Positions 43,385 through 63,937 are shown, counted from the stretch's first letter. The stretch is DNA of 64,000 nucleotides from a virus (IMGVR_UViG_3300029955_000013:1-64000), one strand, 5' to 3'. Notes: generated by a model not told the origin, from the sequence alone. Translations and numbers: made by a program.

Positions 43385-43797
43385 GGGGCCAAACAGGTTA
43401 TCGACTTAACGGTGTATGAGTCAGTAGTCATGCAGGGACAATTCGAATTGAGTTCCTCTAATAAATACATTCGATGCTATAAACGCAAAAAACAAAAGAA
43501 TCGCTGAAGGCGGCGCAATTCTAAGAAACATTTTCAGCAAGTCCGAAGCACCTTGTGCTATCGCAGCCTAATAAGCTTGCTGGAGAGTGCGCAAACTACT
43601 AAGTGTTTGCCAAGTGTGGTCGGGTAAATGTGGTTTCGCTTTTCTGCCATTGAGCGTAACTGCAGCACTTAGCAAAATGCTGTTATACCGAGATATAAAT
43701 GCAATCTGATATTCTCCTGGAAGAAACCAGCGATAAGCATGTGAGTTCCTACAGAACGTAAACGTTAAACACGAGGGTTCGACTCCCTCTGGCTCCA
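43385..43797 (+). ncRNA. ssrA: tmRNA; predicted tag AKNKRIAEGGAILRNIFSKSEAPCAIAA (43485-43571)
   Basis: GGGGCCA/TGGCTCC-A acceptor with G3.U70, 5' GGTTATCGAC, T-arm GAGGG-TTCGACT-CCCTC, ATAAAC|GCA resume context, tag ending IAA then TAATAA. Confidence 0.93.
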
Positions 43798-43838
43798 CCG
43801 AACCTAAATTTAATAGTATTTAAAGTGTAAAGTTTTGA

Positions 43839-44762
43839 ATGAATTTGAATTTAGGTAAACAGAAATTTTTTGTGATCTATCAGATTACCAATTTATTGAA
43901 TGGTAAGATTTATGTCGGTGCACATTGTACTTATGATGTGAATGATAAGTACATGGGTAGCTCCAAACACCTCAAAAAAGATATTAAAGAGTTAGGCCGA
44001 CAGAATTTTGCGAAGGAGATTTTACATGTCTTTGACAATAAAGAAGACATGATGGCAAAAGAGGCAGAAATTGTTGATCAAGAGTTCTGTCATCGAACTG
44101 ATACTTACAATCGTATGATTGGCGGGATAACAGAAATGTTATGGAATAATATGGTTTCGGTTCGAGATAAGGATGGAAACTATTTGAAAGTGTATAATGA
44201 TGATCCGCGTTATCTTTCCGGAGAATTTGTTGGTTGTACTAATGGTTTTGTTCCAGTAAAAGATGTTGAAGGAAATTTTTTACAAGTTGCTAAAGATGAC
44301 CCACGTTATTTGTCTGGTGAATTAGTTAGTTCTGCAAAAGGAATTTTTAACGCCAAGGATAAAGACGGTAATGTTTATCAAATCAGTAATAAAGATATAA
44401 GGTGGTTATCTGGAGAGTTGGTTGGATTAACTGCTGGTTTACATGGCAATTGTGCGTTCAGTGGTAAAAAACATTCAGAAGAAACAAAAGCCAAGATCGG
44501 AAAGAAAAATTCTTTAGCTCAAAGTGGAAGTGGTAATTCAATGTTTGGTAAAAAGCAAACAAAAGAATCTAACGATAAACGGCTTGATAAGATGGGTAAA
44601 AGTTTTTTTGTATTTGATACTGATGGCAATTTTATTTCGCAAGAATTTGGAATAAATCAATATGCGAATAAAAATAACTTAACTGCCACAAGCATTGTTC
44701 AGTGTTTGAAAGGTAAACAAATAAGTCATAAAGGTTTTAAGTTTTTATACGAAAATATTTGA
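43839..44762 (+). CDS. GIY-YIG homing endonuclease with NUMOD-type repeats
   Basis: VIYQITNLLNGKIYVG, YMGS; D.R.LSGE.VG x3; GKKHSEETKAKI, NSMFGKK. Confidence 0.85.
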   Translation: MNLNLGKQKFFVIYQITNLLNGKIYVGAHCTYDVNDKYMGSSKHLKKDIKELGRQNFAKEILHVFDNKEDMMAKEAEIVDQEFCHRTDTYNRMIGGITEMLWNNMVSVRDKDGNYLKVYNDDPRYLSGEFVGCTNGFVPVKDVEGNFLQVAKDDPRYLSGELVSSAKGIFNAKDKDGNVYQISNKDIRWLSGELVGLTAGLHGNCAFSGKKHSEETKAKIGKKNSLAQSGSGNSMFGKKQTKESNDKRLDKMGKSFFVFDTDGNFISQEFGINQYANKNNLTATSIVQCLKGKQISHKGFKFLYENI

Positions 44763-47208: not shown

Positions 47209-47284
47209 GGGAAAATCGCATAGTCAGGTCTATTGCCTCTGCCTTCCAAGCAGGTGTTCGTCGGTTCGAATCCGTCTTTTCCCT
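47209..47284 (+). tRNA. tRNA-Gly(TCC)
   Basis: GGGAAAA/TTTTCCC acceptor, U73, TCTGC-CT TCC AA-GCAGG. Confidence 0.85.
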
Positions 47285-47341
47285 CACACGGGGCTCAGAT
47301 ACAAAGGTATCGTCTGCCCATGTTCTTTGACATATTATTAA

Positions 47342-47426: not shown

Positions 47427-47498
47427 CATCCTGTAGTCTAACGGTTAGGACGTCAGATTTTCACTCTGGAGATGGGGGTTCGATTCTCCCCAGGATGG
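47427..47498 (+). tRNA. tRNA-Glu(TTC)
   Basis: CATCCTG/CAGGATG, TCAGA-TT TTC AC-TCTGG. Confidence 0.9.
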
Positions 47499-47531
47499 CG
47501 ATTTTTAAAAGCTAATTTATAAATTCGTTTT

Positions 47532-48251
47532 ATGGAAAATCTTTATGACATTAACGGCCTCGTTTTCTGGAGCAAGAGGGAGATACAGTTTAGGAGGTAT
47601 GCGCAGGAATTTTTTTCGAGGGAGATAAGTGACCTGCTCATATTTGAGAACAAGAGCTGGTCTTTCCATGAGACTGAAGGCCCGCTGCTCATTCCTAAGT
47701 CCTTAATCAACGCCGATTATACCAACGAGGACATTTGGGTACAGGAAGTAATTGGCGACGATAACGAGCTCGTATTGAGGCCTGAGACTACTCCAAGCTC
47801 TTTCCGGTATGCGGTTTCTTTGATAAATAACTATGTTTCGCTCCCACCTATGGTTGTGGAGCAGACCGGCAAGTCATTCAGGCGGGAGCAGGATCAGGTC
47901 TCAAAGAACATGAGGCTCAAGGAATTCTACCAGCAGGAGTTCCAGTGCATTTATGCGGCGGACACCTTTAATGATTATCAGTCTAAGATATTGCCCGGCT
48001 TGGTGGCGGTTTTCCAAAAGCTGATTGGTAAGCCTTGCAGGATGGTAGATAGCGACAGGCTGCCTTCTTACAGCTTAAGGACTGTCGATGTGGAGGTGAA
48101 TAATGGTAACAAGTGGATGGAGGTTTGTTCTGTTTCAAAACGTACGGATTTTCCTATTCAAGTTAAGTTTGGTTCCAAGGAACCGAAGCCTATGCTGGTT
48201 CTCGAGATCGCGATAGGCCTTGACAGGTGCGTTTACAATTACTTTTTATAA
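47532..48251 (+). CDS. glyS: Minimal glycyl-tRNA synthetase-like protein (alpha2-type catalytic core only, 239 aa)
   Basis: LRPET, motif 2 GKSFRRE..RLKEFYQQEFQ, TVDVE, motif 3 VLEIAIGLDR; ends before the anticodon-binding domain. Confidence 0.75.
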   Translation: MENLYDINGLVFWSKREIQFRRYAQEFFSREISDLLIFENKSWSFHETEGPLLIPKSLINADYTNEDIWVQEVIGDDNELVLRPETTPSSFRYAVSLINNYVSLPPMVVEQTGKSFRREQDQVSKNMRLKEFYQQEFQCIYAADTFNDYQSKILPGLVAVFQKLIGKPCRMVDSDRLPSYSLRTVDVEVNNGNKWMEVCSVSKRTDFPIQVKFGSKEPKPMLVLEIAIGLDRCVYNYFL

Positions 48252-48268
48252 TATTTTGCGGCCGAAAA

Positions 48269-48339
48269 GCATTTGTAGTTCAGTGATAGAACATGCCTCT
48301 CGTAAAGGTAAAACAGCAGTTTGATTCTGCTCTAATGCT
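48269..48339 (+). tRNA. tRNA-Thr(CGT), slightly degenerate
   Basis: TGCCT-CT CGT AA-AGGTA; T-loop TTTGATT; one acceptor mismatch. Confidence 0.7.
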
Positions 48340-48396
48340 CATAAAGTTTTATTACTCTGGGGATTTCGATGTACATTTGCTTTGAAACATTATTCT

Positions 48397-48915
48397 ATGT
48401 ACAACATAAACAAGCGAGCGTTGGATATAAGGAAGATGTTTGGTGAGATTGCAGACATGAACAGTCCTTATGCTGGAACTCTGGATCTCGTTGTTAGGGA
48501 GGAAAAGATTTTCTGCATACTTGCCGAGTCGGTTAGCCAAACGCAGGCGAACTTCATGGTTCAAGAAATCTCAATGTCTTTCTTCCAGGACACGAAGAAC
48601 ATGTTGCTGTCGCAGGCCAAACTGATGCAGAATTTCATAGACACTTATTCTTCGTACGGTCCTGAGTTTAAGATAATAGAAGGGCAGCGAATGGCGTACC
48701 AGAATATGCTTAATTCAATAAATGGTTTGATCGAAGATGTTGACTCACATATAGAATTGTACACTCAATATATTGCGACCAACAACATAATAAAGAAAAG
48801 TATGAAGAAGACTATGAGGGAATGGAAGAAGAACGGTTTTCCTGATCGTTTTGCCGACTCGAGAGATATTCAGATAGTTCCAGACATAATGGGTAATGGT
48901 ACCACACCACCATAA
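48397..48915 (+). CDS. Hypothetical protein
   Basis: ATG at 48397 downstream of TACATTTG (48372). Confidence 0.6.
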   Translation: MYNINKRALDIRKMFGEIADMNSPYAGTLDLVVREEKIFCILAESVSQTQANFMVQEISMSFFQDTKNMLLSQAKLMQNFIDTYSSYGPEFKIIEGQRMAYQNMLNSINGLIEDVDSHIELYTQYIATNNIIKKSMKKTMREWKKNGFPDRFADSRDIQIVPDIMGNGTTPP

Positions 48916-48923
48916 ATTAAAAT

Positions 48924-48995
48924 GCTCCGCTCTTCTAACGGTTAGGATGTGACCCTCTCACGGTTACGATACGGGTTCGATTCCCGTGCGGAGTA
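48924..48995 (+). tRNA. tRNA-Glu(CTC)
   Basis: GCTCCGC/GCGGAGT, TGACC-CT CTC AC-GGTTA. Confidence 0.9.
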
Positions 48996-49010
48996 CAAAA
49001 AATAATTGAA

Positions 49011-49208
49011 ATGGGTTGGAAATGTACGCAGATTTTGACGAGACAGGAGGCGATAAATTTGATTGTTAGGTTGTCTGATGTGAGCATCTTGGAGAGCCTT
49101 TCTGACGACGATTTGTCAAACGTGGTTGACGGATTTTGTGGAGATAACATGGATATGCCTTATTATGGCTGCAACTTCATGGTCTCCGATGTTATAGATA
49201 ATGATTAA
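49011..49208 (+). CDS. Hypothetical protein
   Basis: ORF filling inter-tRNA space. Confidence 0.55.
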   Translation: MGWKCTQILTRQEAINLIVRLSDVSILESLSDDDLSNVVDGFCGDNMDMPYYGCNFMVSDVIDND

Positions 49209-49212
49209 ATAA

Positions 49213-49284
49213 GCAGGAATAGCACAATGGCCAGTGTACGGGTTTGCCAAATCTGATATGGGAGTTCGATTCTCCCCTCCTGCT
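49213..49284 (+). tRNA. tRNA-Gly(GCC)
   Basis: CGGGT-TT GCC AA-ATCTG, U73. Confidence 0.85.
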
Positions 49285-49364
49285 CTGTGTGTGCAAATAA
49301 AGTTCGAATCTTTACCTTATGTACCGGTTAGGGTAGGGTTAGTTCAATTGGTAGAACGGCACAG
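49285..49364 (+). ncRNA. Circularly permuted tRNA-like RNA (T-arm precedes D-arm; YrlA-like topology)
   Basis: TGTGC...T-arm TAAAG-TTCGAAT-CTTTA...CCTTAT/GTAGGG stem...D-arm GTTC-AATTGGTA-GAAC...GCACA closing stem. Confidence 0.6.
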
Positions 49365-49368
49365 TGTC

Positions 49369-49441
49369 GGGCATGTAACTCAGCGGTTAGAGTAGTTCGC
49401 TCATAACGAAAAGGTCGTAGGTTCGATTCCTACCTCGCCCA
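49369..49441 (+). tRNA. tRNA(CAT), probably Ile2 (lysidine type) rather than Met
   Basis: TTCG-CT CAT AA-CGAA; GGGC/GCCC-A acceptor with C4-G69; no initiator features. Confidence 0.8.
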
Positions 49442-49461
49442 CCTTAAAAGCAAGAATACGA

Positions 49462-49671
49462 ATGGATAAAAATGAGTTAAAGAAGGTTATTTACAAGACA
49501 CAACCGATTGCGATTTTGCTTAATGTCAGGAAAGACGGATTGTCTTATGCTGCGAGTGTCGATAACAAGATAGTAAAGTTCTTTATACCATACGATGAGA
49601 TTGGTGAAGTGGTTTGGTTTGCAGAGATGCCGGCAAAGTTGCTGATAAGGTATTTGATAGATGTTGATTAA
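49462..49671 (+). CDS. Hypothetical protein
   Basis: Clean ORF. Confidence 0.6.
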   Translation: MDKNELKKVIYKTQPIAILLNVRKDGLSYAASVDNKIVKFFIPYDEIGEVVWFAEMPAKLLIRYLIDVD

Positions 49672-49680
49672 ATATTTTTT

Positions 49681-49962
49681 ATGGAAGCCAAAGAGAAAAG
49701 ATTTCAGGGCCCTAATGGCGAGTTCGTACCGAGTAAACCGCTCAAGAAAGGCTACCTTTCTATAAAGCAAGCTGATGAAATATGTGAGTGGGTTTATTGT
49801 CACGACTCGTTTAGCGACGAAGAGAAGTTAAAAATGATACTTGGGGTGGAGACGCTGATCGGGGACATAATATCTGAGAACCTTGGAGACTTCAATGTGG
49901 CTTATGTTCCAACCTGGTCAACAAAGTTTAATGACAAAACGCCAATATCGTCTAACGGTTAG
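49681..49962 (+). CDS. Hypothetical protein (3' end runs into tRNA-Glu)
   Basis: Stop codon lies in D-arm of next tRNA. Confidence 0.55.
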   Translation: MEAKEKRFQGPNGEFVPSKPLKKGYLSIKQADEICEWVYCHDSFSDEEKLKMILGVETLIGDIISENLGDFNVAYVPTWSTKFNDKTPISSNG

Positions 49963-50013
49963 GATTGCTCGTTTTCAGCGAGAAAGATGTCGGTTCGAAT
50001 CCGTCTATTGGTT
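49941..50013 (+). tRNA. tRNA-Glu(TTC)
   Basis: GCCAATA/TATTGGT; CTCG-TT TTC AG-CGAG; D-arm like the other Glu tRNAs. Confidence 0.75.
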
Positions 50014-50098
50014 CAAAACTTGGAGGAATCTGGGTCTATCCTGAATTAATAAAGTGCGAGCAAGTGTACATATCTCGCCGCAATAAAGTAAGAGGGAT

Positions 50099-50170
50099 CG
50101 TGGATTAGCTCAGTGGTAGAGTAGCAGGCTGATGGACTGTTGGTCGGTGGTTCAAATCCACCATCCACAA
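50099..50170 (+). tRNA. Atypical tRNA-Ile(GAT)
   Basis: Good D and T arms; loop CT GAT GG, weak anticodon stem, C1-A72 mismatch. Confidence 0.55.
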
Positions 50171-50252
50171 CAAACCAGATAGGAATGTCTGGTGTGCTCT
50201 GGTAATGAGAGTGTGAATAAGCGCGAATAAAACACACTGGTAAGAAACAGAG

Positions 50253-50324
50253 TGTACTATAGGGTAGTGGTAGCCCGTCGGCATCAACAGCCGAAGATCT
50301 CAGGTTCGATTCCTGGTAGTGCAA
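50253..50324 (+). tRNA. Atypical tRNA with CAA anticodon (Leu) on Gln-like body
   Basis: TGTACTA/TAGTGCA-A; TCGGC-AT CAA CA-GCCGA; short variable loop. Confidence 0.6.
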
Positions 50325-50330
50325 CAATTT

Positions 50331-50669
50331 ATGGCTGAATATTATCATATAACTAATAGTAAAAACCTTAGTAATATCCTTACGGAAGGCCTGATACCAA
50401 ACAAGGGATATGGCATGAGCCGTAGGTTAATAAAGCATAACAAAAACTTTATTACGGATAATATTGCCTACATAATTCATAAGCAGATAGGCTTCAAAAG
50501 GTTTATTACAAAAGATTATGTAGTTCTTAATATCGAGCCATACGGTTTAAATATCAAAGAACACACTTATTGGGATCATATAAACCATAAACATGAAGTT
50601 GCAAAGCATGAGTTTGTTTGTTTTGACGTAATATTACCGAACAAAATTAGTGTAATGCAGAACAATTAA
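50331..50669 (+). CDS. ADP-ribosyltransferase/Tpt1-like NAD-binding domain protein
   Basis: YYHIT...NL..IL.EGL.P; C-terminal E.......I.P..I. Confidence 0.5.
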   Translation: MAEYYHITNSKNLSNILTEGLIPNKGYGMSRRLIKHNKNFITDNIAYIIHKQIGFKRFITKDYVVLNIEPYGLNIKEHTYWDHINHKHEVAKHEFVCFDVILPNKISVMQNN

Positions 50670-50678
50670 AATAATTTT

Positions 50679-51551
50679 ATGAACACACGTATTGCGCCTT
50701 CCCCAACAGGCTTTTTTCATCTGGGGACTGCACGGACAGCTTATCACAACTGGCTTGTGGCTCGCGCAACGGGTGGCTTGTTCACCCTGAGGATCGACGA
50801 CACCGACGACGACAGGAACGATGAGGGTCATGTACAGATGATCTACGACTGCATGGACTGGCTTGGTCTCGATTATGACGATACTTTCAGGCAGAGCGAC
50901 CGGAACAAGATTTATGTTGATTACGCTCAGTTCCTTTTGGACATTGATTATGCTACTGTTGCCGACAATGGTGCTATAATGTTTAGATTTCGTGATGAAG
51001 ATTTAATTCACTTTTTTAACGACACTATCGCCGGCAAGATAGAAACTAAGCAGGATGACATCGACAATCTTAGGAGCCTTGTTCTTATGAAGTCTGATGG
51101 TAACCCTACTTATAACTTCTGTTCCATTGTCGACGACTACCTAAGCAAGATAGACTGGATAATTCGTGGCGCCGATCACATAAAGAATACGATAAAACAG
51201 CTACATGTCATAGAGGCAGTTCAGTCTTTGGATAATCCGGTTAATTATTGGAAACCAAAGTTCACCCATGTGGGCCTTATACACGACATGAGCAACAAGA
51301 AGCTGTCCAAGAGGACCGGTGCGAAAAGCGTGCTCGACTACAAGAACGAAGGCGTAAAGCCGGGTGCTCTGCTCAACACGCTGCTTAGGATTGGCTGGGC
51401 GCCTACCGACCCGAACTTCGACTCGAAGCATAAGATCGTGACGAAGGACATGGCGGTGGACATGATACTCAAGGAAGGTAACTTCAGGTCTGCTCCCGGT
51501 AAGTTCGATCCGATGAAACTCGCATACTACAATAAAAAGCATAGTAATTAA
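50679..51551 (+). CDS. gltX: Minimal glutamyl-tRNA synthetase-like protein (catalytic domain only, 290 aa; GluRS/GluQ family)
   Basis: TRIAPSPTG..HLGT, LRIDDTD, QSDR..Y, PTYNF..VDD, IRGADH, KLSKR; no anticodon-binding domain. Confidence 0.85.
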   Translation: MNTRIAPSPTGFFHLGTARTAYHNWLVARATGGLFTLRIDDTDDDRNDEGHVQMIYDCMDWLGLDYDDTFRQSDRNKIYVDYAQFLLDIDYATVADNGAIMFRFRDEDLIHFFNDTIAGKIETKQDDIDNLRSLVLMKSDGNPTYNFCSIVDDYLSKIDWIIRGADHIKNTIKQLHVIEAVQSLDNPVNYWKPKFTHVGLIHDMSNKKLSKRTGAKSVLDYKNEGVKPGALLNTLLRIGWAPTDPNFDSKHKIVTKDMAVDMILKEGNFRSAPGKFDPMKLAYYNKKHSN

Positions 51552-51579
51552 AAAAATGTCGCACATCAGTGCGACACTC

Positions 51580-51650
51580 GCCCGTATAATTTAATGGAAG
51601 ACTAATCCTTTGGTATGGGATATGCATCAGTTCGATTCTGATTATGGGCT
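51580..51650 (+). tRNA. tRNA-Thr(GGT)
   Basis: GCCCGTA/TATGGGC; ATCCT-TT GGT AT-GGGAT; weak D stem. Confidence 0.7.
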
Positions 51651-51666
51651 CATAAAATTTCAATTA

Positions 51667-51837
51667 ATGCAGTTATCGTTTGGTATTGGTGATACGGTTT
51701 ACGCGAACGTTGGTGGCCAGGAGATGAAAATATTGGATGTCTCTGGCAACACGTATATTTGTCAGGTAATTGTTGACGGTAAGACGGAAAAGGTTAACTT
51801 CGAAAAGGGAACAGTACACAAGAAAATAAGGAAATAA
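51667..51837 (+). CDS. YodC/DUF2158-like small protein
   Basis: F.IGD.V....GG..M...C; start at 51667 because the tracked start overlaps a tRNA. Confidence 0.6.
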   Translation: MQLSFGIGDTVYANVGGQEMKILDVSGNTYICQVIVDGKTEKVNFEKGTVHKKIRK

Positions 51838-51891
51838 TTTATAAATGGAAAACATTCACGTCTCGTCTGGATAGCTCATCATTGATCAACA

Positions 51892-52095
51892 ATGATGACT
51901 ACAATTACAAGAACTCGATTTTGGAGAGTCGAGTGGATCCATAGAAATGGATACCGTGCACCACATTCGTTTGTGGAAGCAAAAAACAAGAAAGAGGCTG
52001 TGAAAATAGCCCAAGATAATTCCAGGTTTACTGATTTTCCCAAGACTTGGTCCTTTAATCTTGTCCGCTTAGTGGAGAAGGGAGAGGAAGAATAA
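51892..52095 (+). CDS. Hypothetical protein
   Basis: VEA.NK.EA pattern common in small phage proteins. Confidence 0.55.
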   Translation: MMTTITRTRFWRVEWIHRNGYRAPHSFVEAKNKKEAVKIAQDNSRFTDFPKTWSFNLVRLVEKGEEE

Positions 52096-52213
52096 ATGAC
52101 TTAAAACCGAACGGGTTTGTGGACAAGCAACAACCTGCTCCTGGCCAGCAATGGTATATGGAAAAACCACTTTAAATATGTTGTCGTGAAAGGGGGCGGT
52201 GACCCTTTCAAAT

Positions 52214-52284
52214 GCGGGAGTAGCACAATGGTAGTGCACGGGCTTGCCAAGTCTGATACGAGGGTTCGATTCCCTTCTCCCGCT
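52214..52284 (+). tRNA. tRNA-Gly(GCC)
   Basis: Canonical GCGGGAG/CTCCCGC-U; TT GCC AA loop. Confidence 0.93.
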
Positions 52285-52319
52285 CAGGGTTAAAAAGAGT
52301 TTAAAATAAAAACAATTCT

Positions 52320-52592
52320 ATGAGTAATTTAAAGATACCTTCTTTTGAAGAGGTATTAGCGAATGATGGCAAGGCTGAAGACCTTGAGCTTATTAAGATA
52401 GAAAAGCAATCTCAGCTTGACACCCAGGTCAGGACCATAGAGGTTAAGATAGCAAGGGCACGCAAGCTTTTTGCGAAGTCTGTGATCGACCCGAAGATTG
52501 ACACTTTGGCGATTGCCTCAGAACTAAAGATATTGACTGCGGAACTCGAGCTTGCGAAGGAAATAAGAGAGGCGGTTTTCCCAAAAAATTAA
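52320..52592 (+). CDS. Hypothetical coiled-coil protein
   Basis: Clean ORF. Confidence 0.6.
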   Translation: MSNLKIPSFEEVLANDGKAEDLELIKIEKQSQLDTQVRTIEVKIARARKLFAKSVIDPKIDTLAIASELKILTAELELAKEIREAVFPKN

Positions 52593-52596
52593 TTTG

Positions 52597-53376
52597 ATGA
52601 GCGTTATTGATGAACTTTGGAAACCTCAGCAAGAATCCGTTCACGATTATGACGACACTGTAAAAGAACTGCATCCGTACAAGGATTATATCCAGGAGAA
52701 GTATCGGCCGGAGCCTTGCGATTACAACAATTCGCCGCCTCGTTTTTATTATGGTTATGGCAACAGTTCTATTTTAATCACCAAGCAGCGTGGAAGGCGT
52801 AGGCATCTTGGGAAGCATATCATCATCAAAAAGACGCTTAAAAGCACCTATCTCGATTTTGAGCTTCCTGACAAACTTTACGTTACTGTAGAGGGTTTGA
52901 TCGTACATGAAAGCGATTTCTATTGTACTGATGACTCGTTCATGGAGGCGGAATACTTTACTAACAAGTCCATTTACCTGCAGTTTAAAGACGTTAGTTG
53001 CGACATCAACTTAATAGCTTATTTCTTGACCAATAAGGAGTATGATGATTACGAGAAGGAAGACTATCGGTATAGGAGCATGGGCATGATGAGTCCTGTG
53101 CTGGAAATTTACAAGTATCTGCACGAGGGTCGTTCGAAGATAGAGATCGTTTACTGCAATACCTTCTTTGATGATCCGAACAAGCATGTCATAAATAACA
53201 TGTTAAATACGAGTAAGTTTTTGATAGACCCGGTGGCCCCAATCGTACAAAGTGTTTGTGATCTCGGCCGGCATCTGTTCGTCAGCTCTAATGGTTACAT
53301 CTGTCACTGGAAGTTTTATACCAGATTAGATACAGACTTACTGATAAGACATGCTAAAAAACTTGTATTTCTATGA
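52597..53376 (+). CDS. Hypothetical protein
   Basis: Long ORF coupled to next gene. Confidence 0.6.
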   Translation: MSVIDELWKPQQESVHDYDDTVKELHPYKDYIQEKYRPEPCDYNNSPPRFYYGYGNSSILITKQRGRRRHLGKHIIIKKTLKSTYLDFELPDKLYVTVEGLIVHESDFYCTDDSFMEAEYFTNKSIYLQFKDVSCDINLIAYFLTNKEYDDYEKEDYRYRSMGMMSPVLEIYKYLHEGRSKIEIVYCNTFFDDPNKHVINNMLNTSKFLIDPVAPIVQSVCDLGRHLFVSSNGYICHWKFYTRLDTDLLIRHAKKLVFL

Positions 53377-53864
53377 ACATATTTGTGCTCGGCGGTACCA
53401 AGTCCGGTAAATCCACCATTGCGAAGTATATTGCTGATACGTATGGCTTCAAACTCATACAGATGTCCAAGCCGCTGAAAGATAGGTTCGAGCGTGGGGA
53501 TCTGAACATAGACGTTTACACGAACATGTTGGTTAAGACCACGCTTAGTTACATAGGTTCCAAAGAGAGGCGTAAATCTGAGTATTTCTTGAATTACGCT
53601 TTGCTGGAAATGGGGCCTAATAATGTGTTCGACGGTGTGCGGAACCCTCGTGACTTCATGAGGCTTTTCAATCACTTCGAGGACATGGTTATAAAGATGC
53701 CTGGCGAAGGCATAAATGCTTTTGAGGTGGATGGCTTAAGAGCTATATTCGGCTGCCACAGGTATATGTACAAGTACATGAGCGCAAAGCCGCTGATCAA
53801 GTACCATTACGATCTGGAGCTATCCATAGAGGAGAATTTCCAGAACAACAAAATAGTCATTTAA
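53373..53864 (+). CDS. P-loop nucleoside monophosphate kinase-like protein
   Basis: GGTKSGKST Walker A; DGVRN..D. Confidence 0.7.
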   Translation: MNIFVLGGTKSGKSTIAKYIADTYGFKLIQMSKPLKDRFERGDLNIDVYTNMLVKTTLSYIGSKERRKSEYFLNYALLEMGPNNVFDGVRNPRDFMRLFNHFEDMVIKMPGEGINAFEVDGLRAIFGCHRYMYKYMSAKPLIKYHYDLELSIEENFQNNKIVI

Positions 53865-53873
53865 AAGTAGCTT

Positions 53874-55085
53874 ATGGTTTCTAAATTCGCAATGGACGAC
53901 GCTTATGCTGTACAGGCAGACATTATAGAAGGTTGGTACACGAAGTACAAGTCCATGGATTTGCCTAACGGCTTCAAGAGGGTGTTGTATAGCTTTTCTA
54001 AAAGCGGCGTATCTGTTGCTCTCGGCAGGAATGAAAAATACGGGTATTTCATCTGCGCTTACGGTCAGGGCGAATATTCTTTCGTGATGACAGAAGCTGA
54101 TAGCGAGAACATTCCTGCCGAGGAAGTCTTTGACGTTAAAACTAAGGAAGGATTTATAAAGCATTTCGAGAGGTTTTGCAGGGAGTATAATTACTTGGAT
54201 TTCGAGGTAGTCGATAATGTAAGAGCCTATGATGACACGACGCTTTTCTGCCCGGCCGGGATGCAGAAGTATAAGAACGTGTTTAAGGCGGAGTGCCCAG
54301 AGGATGCTGACAAGGCCGTAAGGCGTCAGTACATGAAGCTAAATGAGAGTGTTATAGCAAATATTCAACCTTGCATAAGGATGAACGATTTGGATGATAT
54401 TGGTGACGGCACGCATTTGCTTTACTTCAACATGATGGGCCTTTTTGCATTTAGGACTCCTGGCTTTGGTGTTAGGCATGCTGTAAAATTTTGGCTTGAT
54501 TTCCTTGAGACGATCGGCTTGAAACCGGATCTTGTTACTGTCCACCCAGACAAGCAAGATTGGATATTTTATTACCAAGATGAAACGGTAGAGCAGAAAT
54601 ATGTAGACGATTTTCTTCAGTATAACGGGCCTGATTTCCTGCTCGATCCAGATTGCACGTGGACTGATGGCGAGATTGGAGGTTACTGTACGGAGTTCTA
54701 CATAAAGGACGTGGAGATAGGCAACATTGTGAATCCGCTTGGTAACTGCATAGATTGCGGCTTTGGCCTCGAGAGGATTCTGTATATACTCAATAATGAG
54801 TTGACTATCGCAACCGATTTGGACACGCTTAAGGAAACCATACTTAAGATATTAGACAGCGGTTACACGCCATCTAATCTCAAACAGGGCTATGTTTTAA
54901 GGAAGCTGTTGAGGGAGTTCGTCAAGAAGGGCGGCGAGATGGATCACGAGGTGTTTCTCGACGAGAAGGATAGGCAGCGAAAAATATATGACAGGTGGCT
55001 GCTGCTCAAGGATAAGCACAAGGACAAGAGCCCTGAATGGTGGTATGATACGCACGGGATTGATTTGAAAATGATAAACGGTTAA
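53874..55085 (+). CDS. alaS: Minimal alanyl-tRNA synthetase-like protein (no editing or C-Ala domains)
   Basis: D.TTLFCPAGMQ, QPCIR.NDLD.IG...H..YF.M.G, GYCTEF, IDCGFGLERI, PSN..QGYVLRKLLR, YDTHG. Confidence 0.85.
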   Translation: MVSKFAMDDAYAVQADIIEGWYTKYKSMDLPNGFKRVLYSFSKSGVSVALGRNEKYGYFICAYGQGEYSFVMTEADSENIPAEEVFDVKTKEGFIKHFERFCREYNYLDFEVVDNVRAYDDTTLFCPAGMQKYKNVFKAECPEDADKAVRRQYMKLNESVIANIQPCIRMNDLDDIGDGTHLLYFNMMGLFAFRTPGFGVRHAVKFWLDFLETIGLKPDLVTVHPDKQDWIFYYQDETVEQKYVDDFLQYNGPDFLLDPDCTWTDGEIGGYCTEFYIKDVEIGNIVNPLGNCIDCGFGLERILYILNNELTIATDLDTLKETILKILDSGYTPSNLKQGYVLRKLLREFVKKGGEMDHEVFLDEKDRQRKIYDRWLLLKDKHKDKSPEWWYDTHGIDLKMING

Positions 55086-55088
55086 TTT

Positions 55089-55406
55089 ATGACCAAAGCG
55101 CCTTTTGACGTCTTCTTTACTTTTGATATAAGTTTGAATATTGTGTCTTATGATTCGGATAGTGATACAATGAATTGGTTTAGCCGGTCTGTTCGTAATC
55201 AGATTAAGCTTCACGAGGAAGTTGGAAAGAAGATGGAAGACAGAGGCTATCTTTATGGCTGGTATGAAATATTGGAGACTGATTTTAACTTTCTCACACC
55301 GGCTAAAGAGTCGATCCAGGATAAAAAGGTAAAAGTAAAAGTCGGCGCCTATAAGGATGAACAGTTTATGTATTCTAAGAAAGAATTGGAAAAAATGGTA
55401 AGTTGA
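55089..55406 (+). CDS. Hypothetical protein
   Basis: Clean ORF. Confidence 0.55.
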   Translation: MTKAPFDVFFTFDISLNIVSYDSDSDTMNWFSRSVRNQIKLHEEVGKKMEDRGYLYGWYEILETDFNFLTPAKESIQDKKVKVKVGAYKDEQFMYSKKELEKMVS

Positions 55407-55416
55407 TAAGTAAGAT

Positions 55417-55492
55417 GGGCGATTACTCCCTCACCCTTATAAGGTGTTGAAAGGATAGTTGGTACAGTTCGGTTCGATCCCGAAATCGCCTA
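55417..55492 (+). tRNA. Non-canonical tRNA-Ile(TAT) lacking a conventional D-arm
   Basis: GGGCGAT/ATCGCCT-A acceptor, CACC-CT TAT AA-GGTG, T-arm TTCGG-TTCGATC-CCGAA; D-loop-like AGTTGGTA lies after the anticodon arm. Confidence 0.7.
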
Positions 55493-55494
55493 CA

Positions 55495-55971
55495 ATGATT
55501 TACGATGAATTGTGTGGAGAGATTTATGACGAGGTGATAAAGTTTAATATTTTTAAACAGTACCTCGAGAATTACGATGTAGATTTGCCTAAGTTAAGAG
55601 TTGAGACGCTCGATTTTTGTTCACAGACAGTCGATGGCAGGGATGCGGATTATATGGCCAGGATTGCCGCGGCAAAGCCGAAGATTTATTTCGCTACTCT
55701 TATAAAGAGCAAGATACTTGGCGAGCTCGTTAAAATCAAGAAACGTCAAGATTTACTCGAGAAATGGCAGGCATCAGGCATATTGGATGGCTTACACCAG
55801 GGAGTTAACACTAATATTGTTGCATTGATGGAAAGCCAGTCGGAGCAGAGTATTACTGAAAACAGGAGCGCTGAGTTCTATTGGGACACAGTAAGGCTTC
55901 CGCTCGTAAGGAGTGTGTTAATTGATTCTTTAATCAAAGAAGCAGAGCATGACCAGGAAGAAAAGGTATGA
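55495..55971 (+). CDS. Protein with C-terminal segment resembling the N-terminus of T4-like major capsid proteins
   Basis: LLEKW..SG.LDGL.......ALMESQ...LPLVR; true start 55495. Confidence 0.55.
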   Translation: MIYDELCGEIYDEVIKFNIFKQYLENYDVDLPKLRVETLDFCSQTVDGRDADYMARIAAAKPKIYFATLIKSKILGELVKIKKRQDLLEKWQASGILDGLHQGVNTNIVALMESQSEQSITENRSAEFYWDTVRLPLVRSVLIDSLIKEAEHDQEEKV

Positions 55972-56329
55972 ACTTACGAAATCGTCTGCCGATAAATTGA
56001 CAGACGCCATTGGGTGCAAGATAGATTTTAAGATAAAAGAGCTTGTAGTTTATCTTAACTTAAATAAGTTCGTTACATTTGCATCTTGTCAGGGACATAG
56101 GAGTCACGGCTTGCGTTACCCTTGGATTGATTTCGACATAAAGTCATACAATGGTTTATTCGATTTTATAAAGAGGCACAAAATCGTCGGCCTTGAAATA
56201 AAGCTCTTGGAAAGCGGTGATGGTTTCGTTATGAGGCTACAACCGGTAGACAAGACCAGGATAAAGGCGGCGAGGGATATTTTTCACATGCTTGAGAAGA
56301 AGTTAAGTAAAAGTTTTTGGAATAAATAA
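55949..56329 (+). CDS. Hypothetical protein
   Basis: ID..I..LV..LN.....T.ASC.GH...PWI.F conserved-looking motif. Confidence 0.6.
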   Translation: MTRKKRYELTKSSADKLTDAIGCKIDFKIKELVVYLNLNKFVTFASCQGHRSHGLRYPWIDFDIKSYNGLFDFIKRHKIVGLEIKLLESGDGFVMRLQPVDKTRIKAARDIFHMLEKKLSKSFWNK

Positions 56330-56380
56330 GTGATTCTTAGTTTCATCGCTGTAGGGATTCTATTAATCAAAACAGTTAAA

Positions 56381-56734
56381 ATGAAAGATCTAAGAATGGC
56401 CTTTGAGGGTTTGAGGAAAAACCCAGTATTCGTTGAAAATTTCTCTTGTGTAGAAGACGTCTTTAATGGTTTTGTCACATCGGAAGAACAAGAGCAGGGA
56501 GTAGAGATACTATATGCTGCTTACCATAGACCAGATTGGGAAGGCTATGCTACAGTTTACTTCTACAATGCGATCTCCGGAAAGTATTACGAGGTACACG
56601 GCTCACACTGTTCCTGCTACGGCTTGGAAGGTCAATGGGTCCCAGAGGAATTATCGTTAGAGGGATTGCAATACATCCTCGACAATGGTAATTCACACGA
56701 GTATGACGACTTTAGAGAAATCTTGGGAAGTTAA
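56381..56734 (+). CDS. Hypothetical phage protein
   Basis: YEVHGSHCSCYGLEGQW motif. Confidence 0.7.
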   Translation: MKDLRMAFEGLRKNPVFVENFSCVEDVFNGFVTSEEQEQGVEILYAAYHRPDWEGYATVYFYNAISGKYYEVHGSHCSCYGLEGQWVPEELSLEGLQYILDNGNSHEYDDFREILGS

Positions 56735-56787
56735 AAAAATGGTATCAAAGTATTGGGTGAGATTCCCAGTATTCCCTGATACCAAAC

Positions 56788-56860
56788 AGGCCTGTATATC
56801 ATCGGTTAGATAGCCATGCTGATAACATGGAAGCAGTTGGTTCGACTCCAACCTGGCCTA
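56788..56860 (+). tRNA. tRNA-Ile(GAT)
   Basis: CCATG-CT GAT AA-CATGG; AGGCC/GGCCT-A. Confidence 0.88.
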
Positions 56861-56875
56861 CACTAAAAGAATTTT

Positions 56876-58042
56876 ATGAAAGTAGATGTTAACCAGTTCA
56901 AGGAGATACCTTCTCCTCACGGAGTTGGATTGTGTGTCTACGGCGGCATGAGCGATGAAATCAAGGCATGGACCGAGTATCACGATATAAAGACAGAATT
57001 CCACGGAAGATTTACTAATTTTCTGTTTGACGGCCAGGATCTCGATAATTGTTTCAACGAGGGGAAGGTGTACGATTACGTGGATGGTTTTTCGCCGAAT
57101 CTTAATAAGCATTTGCACCTCGGTCATGCGTCTAATTTTGTAATAGCGAAAGCGTTGCAGAACATGGGAATTGGCAAGAAGTACATTGCGAACCTTGGTG
57201 ATACTGTTACTGGAGCTGTTGATAAGTTCGAGGCGCTCGAGGCTTTGAGTGACCTTTGGGACAAGTTTGATTACAAGGTCGATAAGATTTACTTCGCTAC
57301 ACAATTGGTAGGCGATGTTGAGATGGAGGATGGTACTGGCGATTATGTCGGCACGAAGGTTTTCGACGTGAACGGTCAGAAGATAGTTGGCCAGAAGAGC
57401 AACGGTAATTATAGTTACTTTTACCATGACGTCGTTCTCGCGAGCAAGTTGAAAGGCGAGACTCTGTATATGACCGGTTTCGAGCAGAAGGAGCACTTTG
57501 AGAGCTTGAAGTGTCTTTACCCCGGCACTAACCACCTGATGCTTGGCCTCGTGACGATCGACGGCAGGAAGATGTCGAGTAGCGAGGGTAACGTGATTAT
57601 GTTGGCGGACGTCATGGACACGCTCAGGACCGAATTTGGAGACGATCACCTTGCTTGGAATGTTTTGAGTGGTTATATACTCAAGTCAGACGTGGACTCG
57701 GTTAAGGACATCAATATGGCCAACATAGACAACCCACGACAGTCTCTCGGTTTGTACTTCAGTTACACGCTCGCAAAGTTGAAGAGCGCCGGCATGAATG
57801 TGGAGCTGAAGGAAAAGTTTAATTCTTTTCGGATGCAGTACAAGTTCTTGAAGGCAAAGACGAACCTGCAGCCGAGAATATTGTTCGACGGCATTTTCGA
57901 TGTTGCAAAGAAGATTAGTACTCTATACGTAAACCACCACATAGCAGGCAACAAGAAAAACCAGGAGCTGTACCAGCCTTTGATGGAGGATTTGCTGCTC
58001 GGCATGGTAAAGCTTGGCATGTTTGACGTAGATAAGGTTTAA
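56876..58042 (+). CDS. argS: Shortened arginyl-tRNA synthetase-like protein (388 aa)
   Basis: SPNLNK.LHLGH, KS.G...Y...D, EQ.EHF, KMSSSEGNVI, DALR-like G.Y..YT.A. Confidence 0.85.
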   Translation: MKVDVNQFKEIPSPHGVGLCVYGGMSDEIKAWTEYHDIKTEFHGRFTNFLFDGQDLDNCFNEGKVYDYVDGFSPNLNKHLHLGHASNFVIAKALQNMGIGKKYIANLGDTVTGAVDKFEALEALSDLWDKFDYKVDKIYFATQLVGDVEMEDGTGDYVGTKVFDVNGQKIVGQKSNGNYSYFYHDVVLASKLKGETLYMTGFEQKEHFESLKCLYPGTNHLMLGLVTIDGRKMSSSEGNVIMLADVMDTLRTEFGDDHLAWNVLSGYILKSDVDSVKDINMANIDNPRQSLGLYFSYTLAKLKSAGMNVELKEKFNSFRMQYKFLKAKTNLQPRILFDGIFDVAKKISTLYVNHHIAGNKKNQELYQPLMEDLLLGMVKLGMFDVDKV

Positions 58043-62800: not shown

Positions 62801-63937
62801 ATGTTTGGACAGATTAACACAAGGAAGGACTTGCCGCACTATGGTTACCCTTCGATCGAGCAGTTTAGGACGGTGATACACAATGTGAACCACAAGGCTC
62901 ACTACGTTGGCCAGGACGAGAACGGAGATGCCATATACGATCAGACGAGACAGAAGCCGACGCTAAAATTCATCGGTACCACGAAGCTGCATGGCACTAA
63001 CTGCGCGGTGGTAATTGACATCAAGAACGAGATAGTTTACTTCCAGTCGAGAGATAACGTGATAACGCCGGCTGAGGACAATGCGGGAGCAGCTACTTAC
63101 CTCGCCTCTATACAGCAGGACATTGTGAATATGGTTAAGGAGGTGATCCAGGAAGAATTCTACGCAAACGAAGTGTATAATTTCACGATACTCGAGACTA
63201 TGCACAAAGAGGACAAGAACAAGTTCGATACGATAGTTATTTACGGCGAGTGGTGCGGCGGCAGCATTCAGAAGGGAGTGGCTTTGAACGGGCTTGACAA
63301 GATGTTCGTAGTGTTCGACGTCGCCTTCATAGACAGCACCGCCGAGATAAAGCACAAGCGCTGGAAGTCTTACGATTTCGTGCAGAGGATCAAGTTGCCA
63401 AGCAAGAGGGTTTACAACATACTCGACTACAAGGTTTGGGACATCGACATCGATTTTAAGGCGCCTACGTTGTCGCAAAATGATTTGATTGACATAACTA
63501 CTGAGGTTGAGGCTCACTGTCCCGTTGGGCTTGCTTTTGGCAAGGATGGCATAGGAGAGGGAGTTGTTTGGAAGTGCATTACGCCGCCCTACGACGGTGA
63601 TTCGGGCTACTGGATGAAGGTCAAGGGGGAGAAACACTCTTCCTCGAAGGTGAAGACAATTGCGGCAGTCGATGTTGAGAAAGTAAGGAACGTGATTGAG
63701 TTCGTCGACAACGTCGTGACGGAGAGCAGGTGTCTGCAGTCGATCGACAAATTGAGGGAGGCTGGCAAGCCGCTGACGAGAGCGAGCCTCGGCGATTACC
63801 TCAGGTGGATATTCAACGACATCGTAAAGGAGGAGACCGACACGATGGTCGCGAACGGCATAGAGGCCAAGGCTGTTGGCGGTGCGATTTCCAACAAGGC
63901 GAGGGAGTGGTTCTTCGCGAACGAGTTGAATTTTTAA
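62801..63937 (+). CDS. RNA ligase, Rnl2 family
   Basis: Motif I TKLHGTN, FQSR, YGEWCG, FVVFDV, EGVV, KVK; C-terminal helical domain. Confidence 0.88.
   Translation: MFGQINTRKDLPHYGYPSIEQFRTVIHNVNHKAHYVGQDENGDAIYDQTRQKPTLKFIGTTKLHGTNCAVVIDIKNEIVYFQSRDNVITPAEDNAGAATYLASIQQDIVNMVKEVIQEEFYANEVYNFTILETMHKEDKNKFDTIVIYGEWCGGSIQKGVALNGLDKMFVVFDVAFIDSTAEIKHKRWKSYDFVQRIKLPSKRVYNILDYKVWDIDIDFKAPTLSQNDLIDITTEVEAHCPVGLAFGKDGIGEGVVWKCITPPYDGDSGYWMKVKGEKHSSSKVKTIAAVDVEKVRNVIEFVDNVVTESRCLQSIDKLREAGKPLTRASLGDYLRWIFNDIVKEETDTMVANGIEAKAVGGAISNKAREWFFANELNF

Follow-up and report, generated by a model that had tools for sequence, protein, structure and literature searches.

The window analysed here comprises the first 64 kb of an 83.9-kb IMG/VR virus record (IMGVR_UViG_3300029955_000013). 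From ~43 kb on it carries a translation island, in which a transfer-messenger RNA (tmRNA), tRNA genes, a GIY-YIG homing endonuclease and an RNA ligase are found together with four open reading frames (ORFs) resembling aminoacyl-tRNA synthetases specific for glycine, glutamate, alanine and arginine, hereafter referred to as Gly-like, short Glu-like, Ala-like and Arg-like. An original prediction, made from the nucleotide sequence, had described these as minimal synthetases, two of them without an anticodon-binding domain. Re-derivation from the sequence returned all four ORFs on the plus strand with the predicted coordinates and sizes and with intact frames (Table 1), and the catalytic motifs said to be kept are strongly conserved in the family alignments. 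The four ORFs are real, intact and synthetase-like, and none is a one-off truncation.

Judged by sequence comparison, each of the four belongs to a large phage-borne family of fixed short length, found mainly on contigs of huge phages of up to 780 kb. When the Glu-, Ala- and Arg-like proteins were used singly as queries, pattern scans of IMG/VR gave no match, while profile-based scans returned 42-80 loci each. ORF lengths re-measured on IMG/VR loci were ~240-280 amino acids (aa) for the Gly-like, ~385-440 aa for the Arg-like and ~260-310 aa for the Ala-like family. All four families, together with a full-length glutamyl-tRNA synthetase (GluRS), are present in LR745206.1, a complete phage genome of 635 kb. 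Phage synthetases have been reported before (Al-Shayeb 2020), truncation not being mentioned in the part of that report covered here, and as many as 15 synthetases are on record for a huge phage (PMC7162821). No paper describing the short phage families was found in the literature searched, which did not include subscription journals.

With genes for a portal protein (phrog_213, E = 3e-41) and for virion proteins, the window belongs to a large phage. The contig covers only a fragment of the genome (41% complete by CheckV estimate), so that tRNAs or domains missing from it prove little by themselves. ARAGORN and Rfam identified 27 tRNA genes, 17 within the window and 10 on the remainder of the contig, with no tRNA-Ala or tRNA-Arg on the entire 83.9 kb. 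The statements that the tmRNA is the sole alanine-type acceptor and that no tRNA-Arg is visible therefore extend from the window to the whole contig.

Table 1. Synthetase-like genes, RNA genes and other features of the window, and features of related loci referred to in the text. Positions without a prefix are those of the window.
Feature	Position	Strand	Basis
Gly-like, putative minimal class II synthetase, 239 aa, motifs 1-3 only	47532..48251	+	PF00587, NF003211, AF2 model
Short Glu-like, putative class I synthetase, 290 aa, HIGH (HLGT), KMSKS (KLSKR)	50679..51551	+	PF00749, TIGR00464, PDB 7k86
Ala-like, putative class II synthetase, 403 aa; extension 1-92 (53874-54149), family core 93-403	53874..55085	+	PF01411
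Arg-like, putative compact class I synthetase, 388 aa; N-module 1-65, Rossmann core, C-terminal helical anticodon-binding domain	56876..58042	+	TIGR00456, AF2
Phage tmRNA, G3:U70 and A73	43385..43799	+	ARAGORN, Rfam RF00023, sequence
GIY-YIG/NUMOD homing-endonuclease-like ORF	43839-44762	+	
tRNA-Gly(UCC), G1:C72, U73, upstream of Gly-like gene	47209..47285	+	ARAGORN, Rfam
tRNA-Glu(UUC), 33 nt upstream of Gly-like gene	47427..47499	+	ARAGORN, Rfam
tRNA-Glu(CUC)	48924..48996	+	ARAGORN, Rfam
tRNA-Gly(GCC), U73	49213..49285	+	ARAGORN, Rfam
tRNA-Glu(UUC)	49941..50014	+	ARAGORN
tRNA-Gly(GCC), G1:C72, C2:G71, G3:C70, U73	52214..52285	+	ARAGORN, Rfam
Small ORF, weakly nucleotide-kinase-like	53373-53864	+	DNMK, AAA_17, below cut-offs
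RNA ligase, far side of tRNA island, context only	62801..63937	+	PF09414 domain match
Gly-like homologue of Sinorhizobium phage Phosso (L097)	PV764938.1:172390-173142		
Smaller class II core ORF	G003:157155-157529		PF00587
Smaller class II core ORF	G004:3625-3993		PF00587
Smaller class II core ORF	LR745206.1:345620-345898		PF00587
Smaller class II core ORF	PV764938.1:4225-4593		PF00587
tRNA(CUA), G73, directly upstream of Gly-like gene	L007:4053-4126		ARAGORN
Free-standing tRNA_bind ORF	LR745206.1:21352-21576 (L101:1133-1663)		PF01588, E = 2e-14
Ala-like core on Rhizobium leguminosarum pRle248c (L044)	NZ_CP048283.1:46830-47756		

Domain content of the four enzymes

By sequence, the Arg-like protein matches only TIGR00456 (E = 2e-11; 42.7 bits against a cut-off of 261.65). 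It carries the HIGH (HLGH) and KMSSSEG motifs and has at least 300 homologues on contigs reaching 780 kb in size; nearly all of these proteins measure 389-394 aa. Its AlphaFold2 (AF2) model, with a mean predicted local distance difference test (pLDDT) score of 92, aligns end to end with yeast arginyl-tRNA synthetase (ArgRS; 1bs2), residues 1-388 corresponding to 23-607 (365 aligned, VIA Z 25.9, root-mean-square deviation (rmsd) 3.8), and a Foldseek search with the model matches ArgRS 1f7u with E = 1e-15. Cysteinyl-tRNA synthetase (CysRS; Z 22.9) and MetRS align only from about residue 58. When the family profile is compared with the Protein Data Bank (PDB), ArgRS is matched around HIGH, in the catalytic region and at the very end of the C-terminus. 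Residues N75, Y181 and D185 are invariant and align with yeast N153, Y347 and D351, which we take to be arginine-site residues; SPN and H81..H84 (HxGH) are invariant as well.

The N-terminal domain, thought to be missing in the original prediction, is represented by residues 1-65, a small alpha/beta module aligning with the N-terminal region of ArgRS, and the C-terminal anticodon domain is present. Canonical ArgRS enzymes (yeast 1bs2/1f7u, E. coli 4oby) share with the Arg-like protein the domain order from end to end, the arginine-site residues, HIGH and the MSxxxG loop. However, they measure 550-610 aa, whereas the Arg-like protein, at ~390 aa, has an N-terminal domain shrunk to ~65 aa and has lost insertion sequence inside its domains, including Rossmann-fold insertions. 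As modelled, the Arg-like protein is an ordinary ArgRS in compact form, with all three domains.

The Ala-like protein matches PF01411 (E = 5e-20) and scores 74 bits on TIGR00344 (cut-off 457). Its 1033 homologues, typically of 276-285 aa, cover residues 93-403 of the window protein. The N-terminal extension, previously estimated at ~85 residues, is real as an open frame of ~92 aa, and no relative examined has one. Residues 1-92 have no Pfam match and no usable feature match in the ESM Atlas; structural look-alikes are weak (TM ≤ 0.59 over ~50 residues, one of them an OB fold) and were not interpreted. The core comprises the aminoacylation domain followed by the opening helices of the tRNA-recognition domain. 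In a comparison of the family profile with catalytic fragments of alanyl-tRNA synthetase (AlaRS) in the PDB, position 236 of the 277-position profile aligns to about AlaRS residue 320, and the protein extends to about residue 320-360, a short way past the GYVLRK helix, without editing domain, C-Ala or complete tRNA-recognition domain. R169, N284, D294 and G296 are invariant, and the C-terminal tail bears a conserved, family-specific motif (RQ...WW.DTHGID).

A known parallel is the mini-AlaRS of Tupanvirus (PMC10036535). As for that enzyme and for catalytic AlaRS fragments (E. coli 1-441, Aquifex 1-453), reading of the acceptor stem only would be expected of the Ala-like protein, but its core, at ~280 aa, is roughly 150 aa smaller and has its own C-terminal motif, the window copy adding 92 aa. 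The family also occurs in a cellular, non-phage setting on Rhizobium plasmids: on R. leguminosarum pRle248c an Ala-like core of ~280-310 aa lies beside genes for an Xre-like antitoxin and a VapC/Phd toxin-antitoxin. No tRNA is listed near the plasmid genes, but this says little, since PLSDB tables list no RNA genes.

The short Glu-like protein matches PF00749 (E = 1e-56) and PDB GluRS 7k86 (E = 2e-51). It scores 256.4 bits on the GluRS model TIGR00464 (cut-off 289.95), compared with 136.4 bits on TIGR03838 (cut-off 276.7), the model for GluQRS (YadB). Likewise, the profile of the short family gives 278 bits for E. coli GltX and 120 bits for GluQ. Alignment bears out the reported lack of both an anticodon domain and a zinc cluster: the protein ends at about E. 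coli GltX residue 315, which presumably coincides with the boundary (~residue 314) of an engineered N-terminal fragment of the E. coli enzyme, and the zinc/CP insert is deleted across the whole short family. The motifs HxG (HIGH), RIDDTD, DGxPTYNF, RGxDH and KLSKR are conserved, so that HIGH, KMSKS and the glutamate-site motifs are held in common with bacterial GluRS. GluQRS is likewise a GluRS catalytic half of ~300 aa with the same end point and no anticodon domain, but in E. coli it carries the zinc cluster, as does GluRS, unlike the short Glu-like protein. Unlike engineered C-truncated GluRS, the short form is natural, conserved and phage-borne, and has lost the zinc/CP insert.

The nearest relatives of the short Glu-like protein measure 280-315 aa, and Glu ORF lengths in IMG/VR are bimodal, 54 ORFs measuring 230-328 aa and another 23 measuring 442-541 aa. 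A tree of the kind proposed as a check against GluQ was built from 44 sequences, 33 of them short forms; these fall into one clade (SH-aLRT 99) on a stem of 0.93 substitutions per site. The short clade is separate from the main clade of full-length phage GluRS and from E. coli GluQRS, the latter being represented by a single long-branch sequence. With 136 bits against a cut-off of 277, no zinc cluster and a profile that prefers GltX, the short family cannot, on sequence grounds, be filed as GluQRS.

The Gly-like protein is the smallest of the four. It matches PF00587 (E = 3e-8) and the glycyl-tRNA synthetase (GlyRS) model NF003211 (E = 3e-13; 49.3 bits against a curated cut-off of 312), and profile comparison with the PDB returns GlyRS (E = 1e-12). 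In its AF2 model (pLDDT 91), 233 of the 239 residues are placed on residues 18-336 of Mycobacterium GlyRS (VIA Z 23.4, rmsd 2.7), and the 18 best structural matches are all GlyRS. The protein does end directly after motif 3, as had been noted, with GLDRCVYNYFL followed by the stop codon, 9 residues past the motif, and the model covers the GlyRS catalytic domain only. The ~80 residues absent between motifs 1 and 2 correspond to the GlyRS insertion domain. As modelled, the Gly-like protein is a bare class II GlyRS core, without insertion or anticodon domain. It has 31 relatives in IMG/VR, located on contigs that reach 561 kb, and in these too the protein stops directly behind motif 3 (an end point recorded for 27 of them in one count); the motifs RPETT, KSFRxE, RLKEFYQQEFQ and LExAxGxDR are invariant or nearly so. 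RPET and EFxQxE align with the same glycine-site motifs in Mycobacterium GlyRS; the putative third glycine-pocket element, LE.A.G.DR, would have Ala where the form that we take to be usual, EPS.G.xR, has Ser.

A homodimer of the Gly-like protein was predicted with a score of 0.86, against 0.00 for the best control; of the proteins with structures solved as pairs, 20 of 30 attained the mark applied, as did 1 of 23 single-chain proteins. Between runs at least 98% of contacts were shared, with a partner pLDDT of at least 90, and the interface involves motif 1 (residues 46-55), although the high score may reflect how common class II dimers are among solved structures. Dimeric alpha2 GlyRS (Mycobacterium 8slg/8u2p, Thermus 1ati), the best structural and sequence match, has in common with the Gly-like protein the class II core, motifs 1-3, RPET and EFxQxE, and the predicted dimer through motif 1. 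It is, however, 440-690 aa long, with an insertion and a C-terminal HGTP anticodon-binding domain, both lacking in the 239-aa protein. Amino acid:carrier-protein ligases (Bradyrhizobium Bll0957, 3mf1/4h2s), small glycine-activating class II cores of ~300 aa without tRNA-binding domains, also resemble the Gly-like model (Z ~20), but these are derived from SerRS, and the Gly-like protein matches GlyRS better.

Gly-like genes are found in cultured jumbo phages, namely Sinorhizobium Phosso, Xanthomonas XbC2, five Brevundimonas vB_BpoS phages and the Caulobacter CcrBL9/CcrSC group, under the labels 'serine-tRNA synthetase', 'aminoacyl-tRNA synthetase', 'RNA synthetase class II' and 'hypothetical protein'. 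The Phosso homologue, with 56% identity to the window protein, is annotated 'serine-tRNA synthetase', a label that is probably wrong, as the protein belongs by sequence to the short GlyRS-like family. Its gene has an RNA ligase, CysRS, a tRNA and peptidyl-tRNA hydrolase as neighbours. A second, smaller class II core ORF occurs in several relatives (frames of 181-218 aa, covering PF00587 positions 3-133; Table 1) and was not found on this contig.

Absent domains and neighbouring tRNA genes

If the missing domains were encoded as separate genes, complete relatives should reveal them. Three such genomes were searched, G003 (543 kb) and G004 (465 kb), both 100% complete by CheckV, and LR745206.1. 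PF03129 (HGTP_anticodon) is absent from all three, each of which has the Gly-like gene, and from a further phage genome, G000. PF19269 (Anticodon_2) is absent from G003, where the short form is the sole Glu enzyme, and from G000. LR745206.1 has no second AlaRS, and tRNA_SAD is absent from G000, G003, G004 and LR745206.1. Among relatives, HGTP_anticodon matches fall in larger ORFs of 375-665 aa and not in small stand-alone genes, Anticodon_2 matches only inside full-length GluRS ORFs (433-543 aa), and the one tRNA_SAD match inside a 665-aa ORF of Phosso. The split-gene idea is not borne out for the standard domains in complete relatives, and the claim that two of the four proteins, Gly-like and short Glu-like, lack an anticodon-binding domain stands.

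A search for proteins that might assist in trans gave one candidate. About 1.8 kb from the short Glu-like gene, LR745206.1 has a free-standing tRNA_bind ORF of the Trbp111/Arc1p type, which could serve as a tRNA-binding helper in trans; G003 has a weak match to the same domain, and none was found in G000, G004 or Phosso. Among 20 neighbouring ORFs of the window, comparison with Pfam or NCBIfam gave no match related to tRNA binding. In 29 loci the Gly-like gene has no conserved neighbour save the Ala-like gene, its immediate neighbour in L004, L030 and LR745206.1, with a partial Ala-like match ~1 kb downstream in L003.

As originally noted, tRNA-Gly and tRNA-Glu genes flank the first two synthetase-like genes of the window. 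All three tRNA-Gly genes of the window have G1:C72 and U73. The three tRNA-Glu genes share an identical D-arm, TCTAACGGTTAGGA, and differ in acceptor stem and discriminator base; this common D-arm would fit recognition of the D-arm by a GluRS half.

Linkage between synthetase-like and tRNA genes was evaluated on IMG/VR loci comprising 6 kb on each side, with one representative per 80%-identity cluster. For the Arg-like family, the nearest tRNA is tRNA-Arg in 9 of the 14 clusters having any tRNA (P = 7e-8 versus a 7% baseline), and tRNA-Arg occurs in 10/14 clusters compared with 11/49 for the other families (Fisher P = 0.001). For the Ala-like family, a tRNA-Ala is present no more than 6 kb from the gene in 9/13 clusters, as opposed to 8/50 for the other families (P = 4e-4). 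Around the short Glu-like gene, tRNA-Glu accounts for 20 of 90 flanking tRNAs versus a 3.3% baseline (P = 1e-11), tRNA-Asp for a non-significant 5 of 90; by cluster, the excess of tRNA-Glu (8/18 versus 13/38 for the other families) is not significant (Fisher P = 0.33). As tRNA genes occur in tandem clusters, count-based P values overstate independence and tests at the level of the locus are safer. Judged by locus, the links of the Arg-like and Ala-like genes are the only ones to stand, while linkage of the short Glu-like gene to tRNA-Glu holds versus the genome baseline only.

The arrangement in LR745206.1 illustrates these links: tRNA-Gly, tRNA-Met, tRNA-Gly, Gly-like, Ala-like, tRNA-Gly and tRNA-Ala follow one another, the last being the only tRNA-Ala of the genome and having G3:U70 and A73, and the Arg-like gene has a tRNA-Arg 1.4 kb upstream. 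With relatives placing tRNA-Ala (G3:U70) and tRNA-Arg beside these genes, the absence of both tRNAs here is attributable to the fragmentary contig.

Several further observations concern the surroundings of the genes. In locus L007 a tRNA(CUA), an amber suppressor called 'Pyl' by ARAGORN, is located directly upstream of the Gly-like gene, and the same tRNA is found in L013, L014, L015, L019, L020, L022 and L023, within ~2 kb upstream of the Gly-like gene at position 6001; the eight loci are mutually related and may represent a single inherited arrangement. These suppressors carry G73 where the phage tRNA-Gly genes have U73, and thus give no direct sign of glycine acceptance. Reassignment of TAG, which might have accounted for a suppressor at this place, was considered for G003, G004, LR745206.1 and G000, but no clear indication of it was obtained, as readthrough of TAG raised ORF coverage no more than that of other stops. 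In the window, the GIY-YIG/NUMOD ORF lies directly downstream of the tmRNA gene. The small ORF preceding the Ala-like gene has an N-terminus weakly resembling P-loop nucleotide kinases; it begins across the stop codon of the 260-aa ORF before it and ends 10 nt before the Ala-like start. No Shine-Dalgarno-like purine run precedes the two starts examined, Gly-like (ataaattcgttttATG; 47520-47534) and Ala-like (aaaagtagcttATG; 53862-53876), possibly a sign that the host makes no use of these sites. A megablast search of the region against GenBank phages gave no match, and the window's own proteins are also listed in the database on a contig of up to 146 kb.

Proposed role and alternative readings

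We propose that the four proteins are a set of working minimal synthetases serving the phage tRNA island, a reading to which we assign a probability of roughly one half, with confidence highest for the Arg-like, moderate for the Ala-like and lowest for the Gly-like and short Glu-like enzymes. Amino-acid activation, tRNA charging and the mode of recognition are what we infer from fold, conservation and genomic setting. The four enzymes would keep phage and host tRNAs charged during infection, recognising tRNA with far less protein than cellular enzymes do. The Arg-like enzyme would work canonically, as a compact but complete ArgRS. For the Ala-like enzyme, recognition would be through the acceptor stem (G3:U70) of phage tRNA-Ala and perhaps also through that of the phage tmRNA, a plausible substrate given its G3:U70 and A73. 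The Gly-like enzyme, a homodimeric bare core, would reach only the acceptor end of its tRNA, with U73 and the first base pairs. The short Glu-like enzyme would retain the half of GluRS that binds acceptor and D-arm and be unable to read the anticodon; by the title of Dubois et al. 2009 (cited in PMC3927822), E. coli GluRS truncated before its anticodon domain is still specific for tRNA-Glu.

Several results weigh against this proposal. All four proteins score far below the curated NCBIfam cut-offs for full-length enzymes, a shortfall to be expected of shortened proteins. We know of no class II enzyme as small as the Gly-like protein that has been shown to charge tRNA; every appended tRNA-binding module of known GlyRS is absent from it, and tRNA-Gly is found in 4/11 clusters of its family, which is not significant (P = 0.16). 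The Ala-like protein ends ~75-100 residues short of fragments that aminoacylate (~435-461 aa), and E. coli AlaRS 1-368 reportedly forms the adenylate yet fails to charge tRNA. Ala-like proteins are, moreover, recorded on Rhizobium plasmids (93 records, as 'alanine--tRNA ligase-related protein'). Finally, LR745206.1 encodes a 492-aa full-length GluRS with Anticodon_2 besides its 285-aa short form, and in G003, which has the short form, ARAGORN detected neither tRNA-Glu nor tRNA-Asp.

Some of these results are what would be expected if the proteins, above all the short Glu-like one and perhaps the Gly-like and Ala-like ones, were paralogues with a new function, passing the amino acid to a tRNA base in the manner of GluQRS, to a protein, to a small molecule or to a nucleotide. 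This is the main rival to a set of working synthetases, and we hold it to be clearly the less probable of the two. The short Glu-like protein has the architecture and end point of GluQRS, its clade stands apart on a long stem, and the coexistence with full-length GluRS in LR745206.1 suggests that it may be a paralogue with its own job; the failure to detect a tRNA-Glu in G003 points the same way, as do the likeness of the Gly-like model to carrier-protein ligases and the plasmid-borne Ala-like genes outside an obvious translation context. Synthetase paralogues that are truncated and serve other purposes are well documented, among them GluQRS, PoxA, HisZ and AcmF (PMC9437257, PMC12945691). On the other hand, the short Glu family scores far higher as GluRS than as GluQRS, is devoid of the zinc cluster present in both E. 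coli enzymes, and has neighbours enriched in tRNA-Glu rather than tRNA-Asp. No PP-binding carrier protein (PF00550) is encoded by any of five phage genomes with the Gly-like gene (LR745206.1, G000, G003, G004 and Phosso), although a host carrier protein is possible. The Ala-like protein keeps, as invariant residues, the Asn and Asp of the alanine site, canonical adenylate-site residues which AcmF has lost (PMC12945691), and the genes are placed inside tRNA islands.

The original prediction, the interpretation of which is supported in part, went further than charging as such and proposed that anticodon-blind enzymes could act on nicked or anticodon-altered tRNAs. For the Ala-like protein the term adds nothing, as AlaRS never reads the anticodon, and it does not apply to the Arg-like protein, the modelled structure of which retains the anticodon domain. 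There remains the notion that the Gly-like and short Glu-like proteins are natural anticodon-blind synthetases which use an 'operational code' of acceptor stem or D-arm and charge their tRNAs whatever the anticodon, including altered or suppressor tRNAs, such as the tRNA(CUA) upstream of the Gly-like gene in one clade of relatives, or tRNAs cut in the anticodon loop by nucleases of host defence and rejoined by the RNA ligase, the Gly-like protein then being the smallest natural tRNA synthetase known. We regard this stronger version as doubtful.

Charging might also depend on help in trans, whether from a phage tRNA-binding protein of the Trbp111/Arc1p type, a novel partner, or host synthetase subunits in mixed dimers. 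The tRNA_bind ORF of LR745206.1 and the weak match in G003 are in keeping with this; yeast Arc1p, which has the same domain, assists GluRS and MetRS, and truncated E. coli GluRS is said, in the title of Dubois 2009 as cited in PMC3927822, to be stimulated by its free distal domain. However, the adjacency in LR745206.1 is a single case, the ORF was not found in G000, G004 or Phosso, and neither the 29 Gly-like loci nor the 20 window ORFs revealed a conserved or tRNA-binding partner, which makes this dependence unlikely. More improbable still is that aminoacyl-tRNA is made for a non-ribosomal use, such as tRNA-dependent modification of phage DNA or the cell envelope. Phage Mu Mom modifies DNA adenine with Gly-tRNA-Gly (PMC13219725), so that diversion of Gly-tRNA by phages is possible, and the Gly-like gene sits among tRNA-Gly genes, but four different amino acids are involved, the tmRNA of the island and the peptidyl-tRNA hydrolase of a relative are translation functions, and no Mom-like or aminoacyl-tRNA-dependent transferase was seen among the neighbours scanned, no search having been aimed at such genes. 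Least credible of all are captured host synthetase genes in functionless decay. Short ORFs scoring below curated family cut-offs might suggest as much, but homologues of matching length, with 45-75% identity and intact frames, number in the hundreds to thousands and occur in phages from many samples, cultured ones included, and decay is ruled out by catalytic motifs that show little or no variation in any of the four alignments.

Synthetases are generally regarded as large enzymes of several domains, and their minimal size has so far been explored mostly with engineered fragments ('urzymes', minihelix charging). In huge phages, evolution appears to have run this miniaturisation four times, with the small sizes held by selection across hundreds of genomes, and the Gly-like and short Glu-like proteins, having no anticodon-reading part, are natural test cases for the least protein needed to charge a tRNA. 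The question is testable, as cultured Sinorhizobium, Xanthomonas, Brevundimonas and Caulobacter phages carry the Gly-like gene. If tRNA is charged, the four families would define natural minimal modes of recognition, bear on an acceptor-stem code that preceded reading of the anticodon and help explain how huge phages translate on their own tRNAs; they would also offer very compact enzymes, maybe orthogonal to cellular systems, of use in genetic-code engineering. If it is not, they would represent new synthetase-derived enzymes that are widespread in phages.

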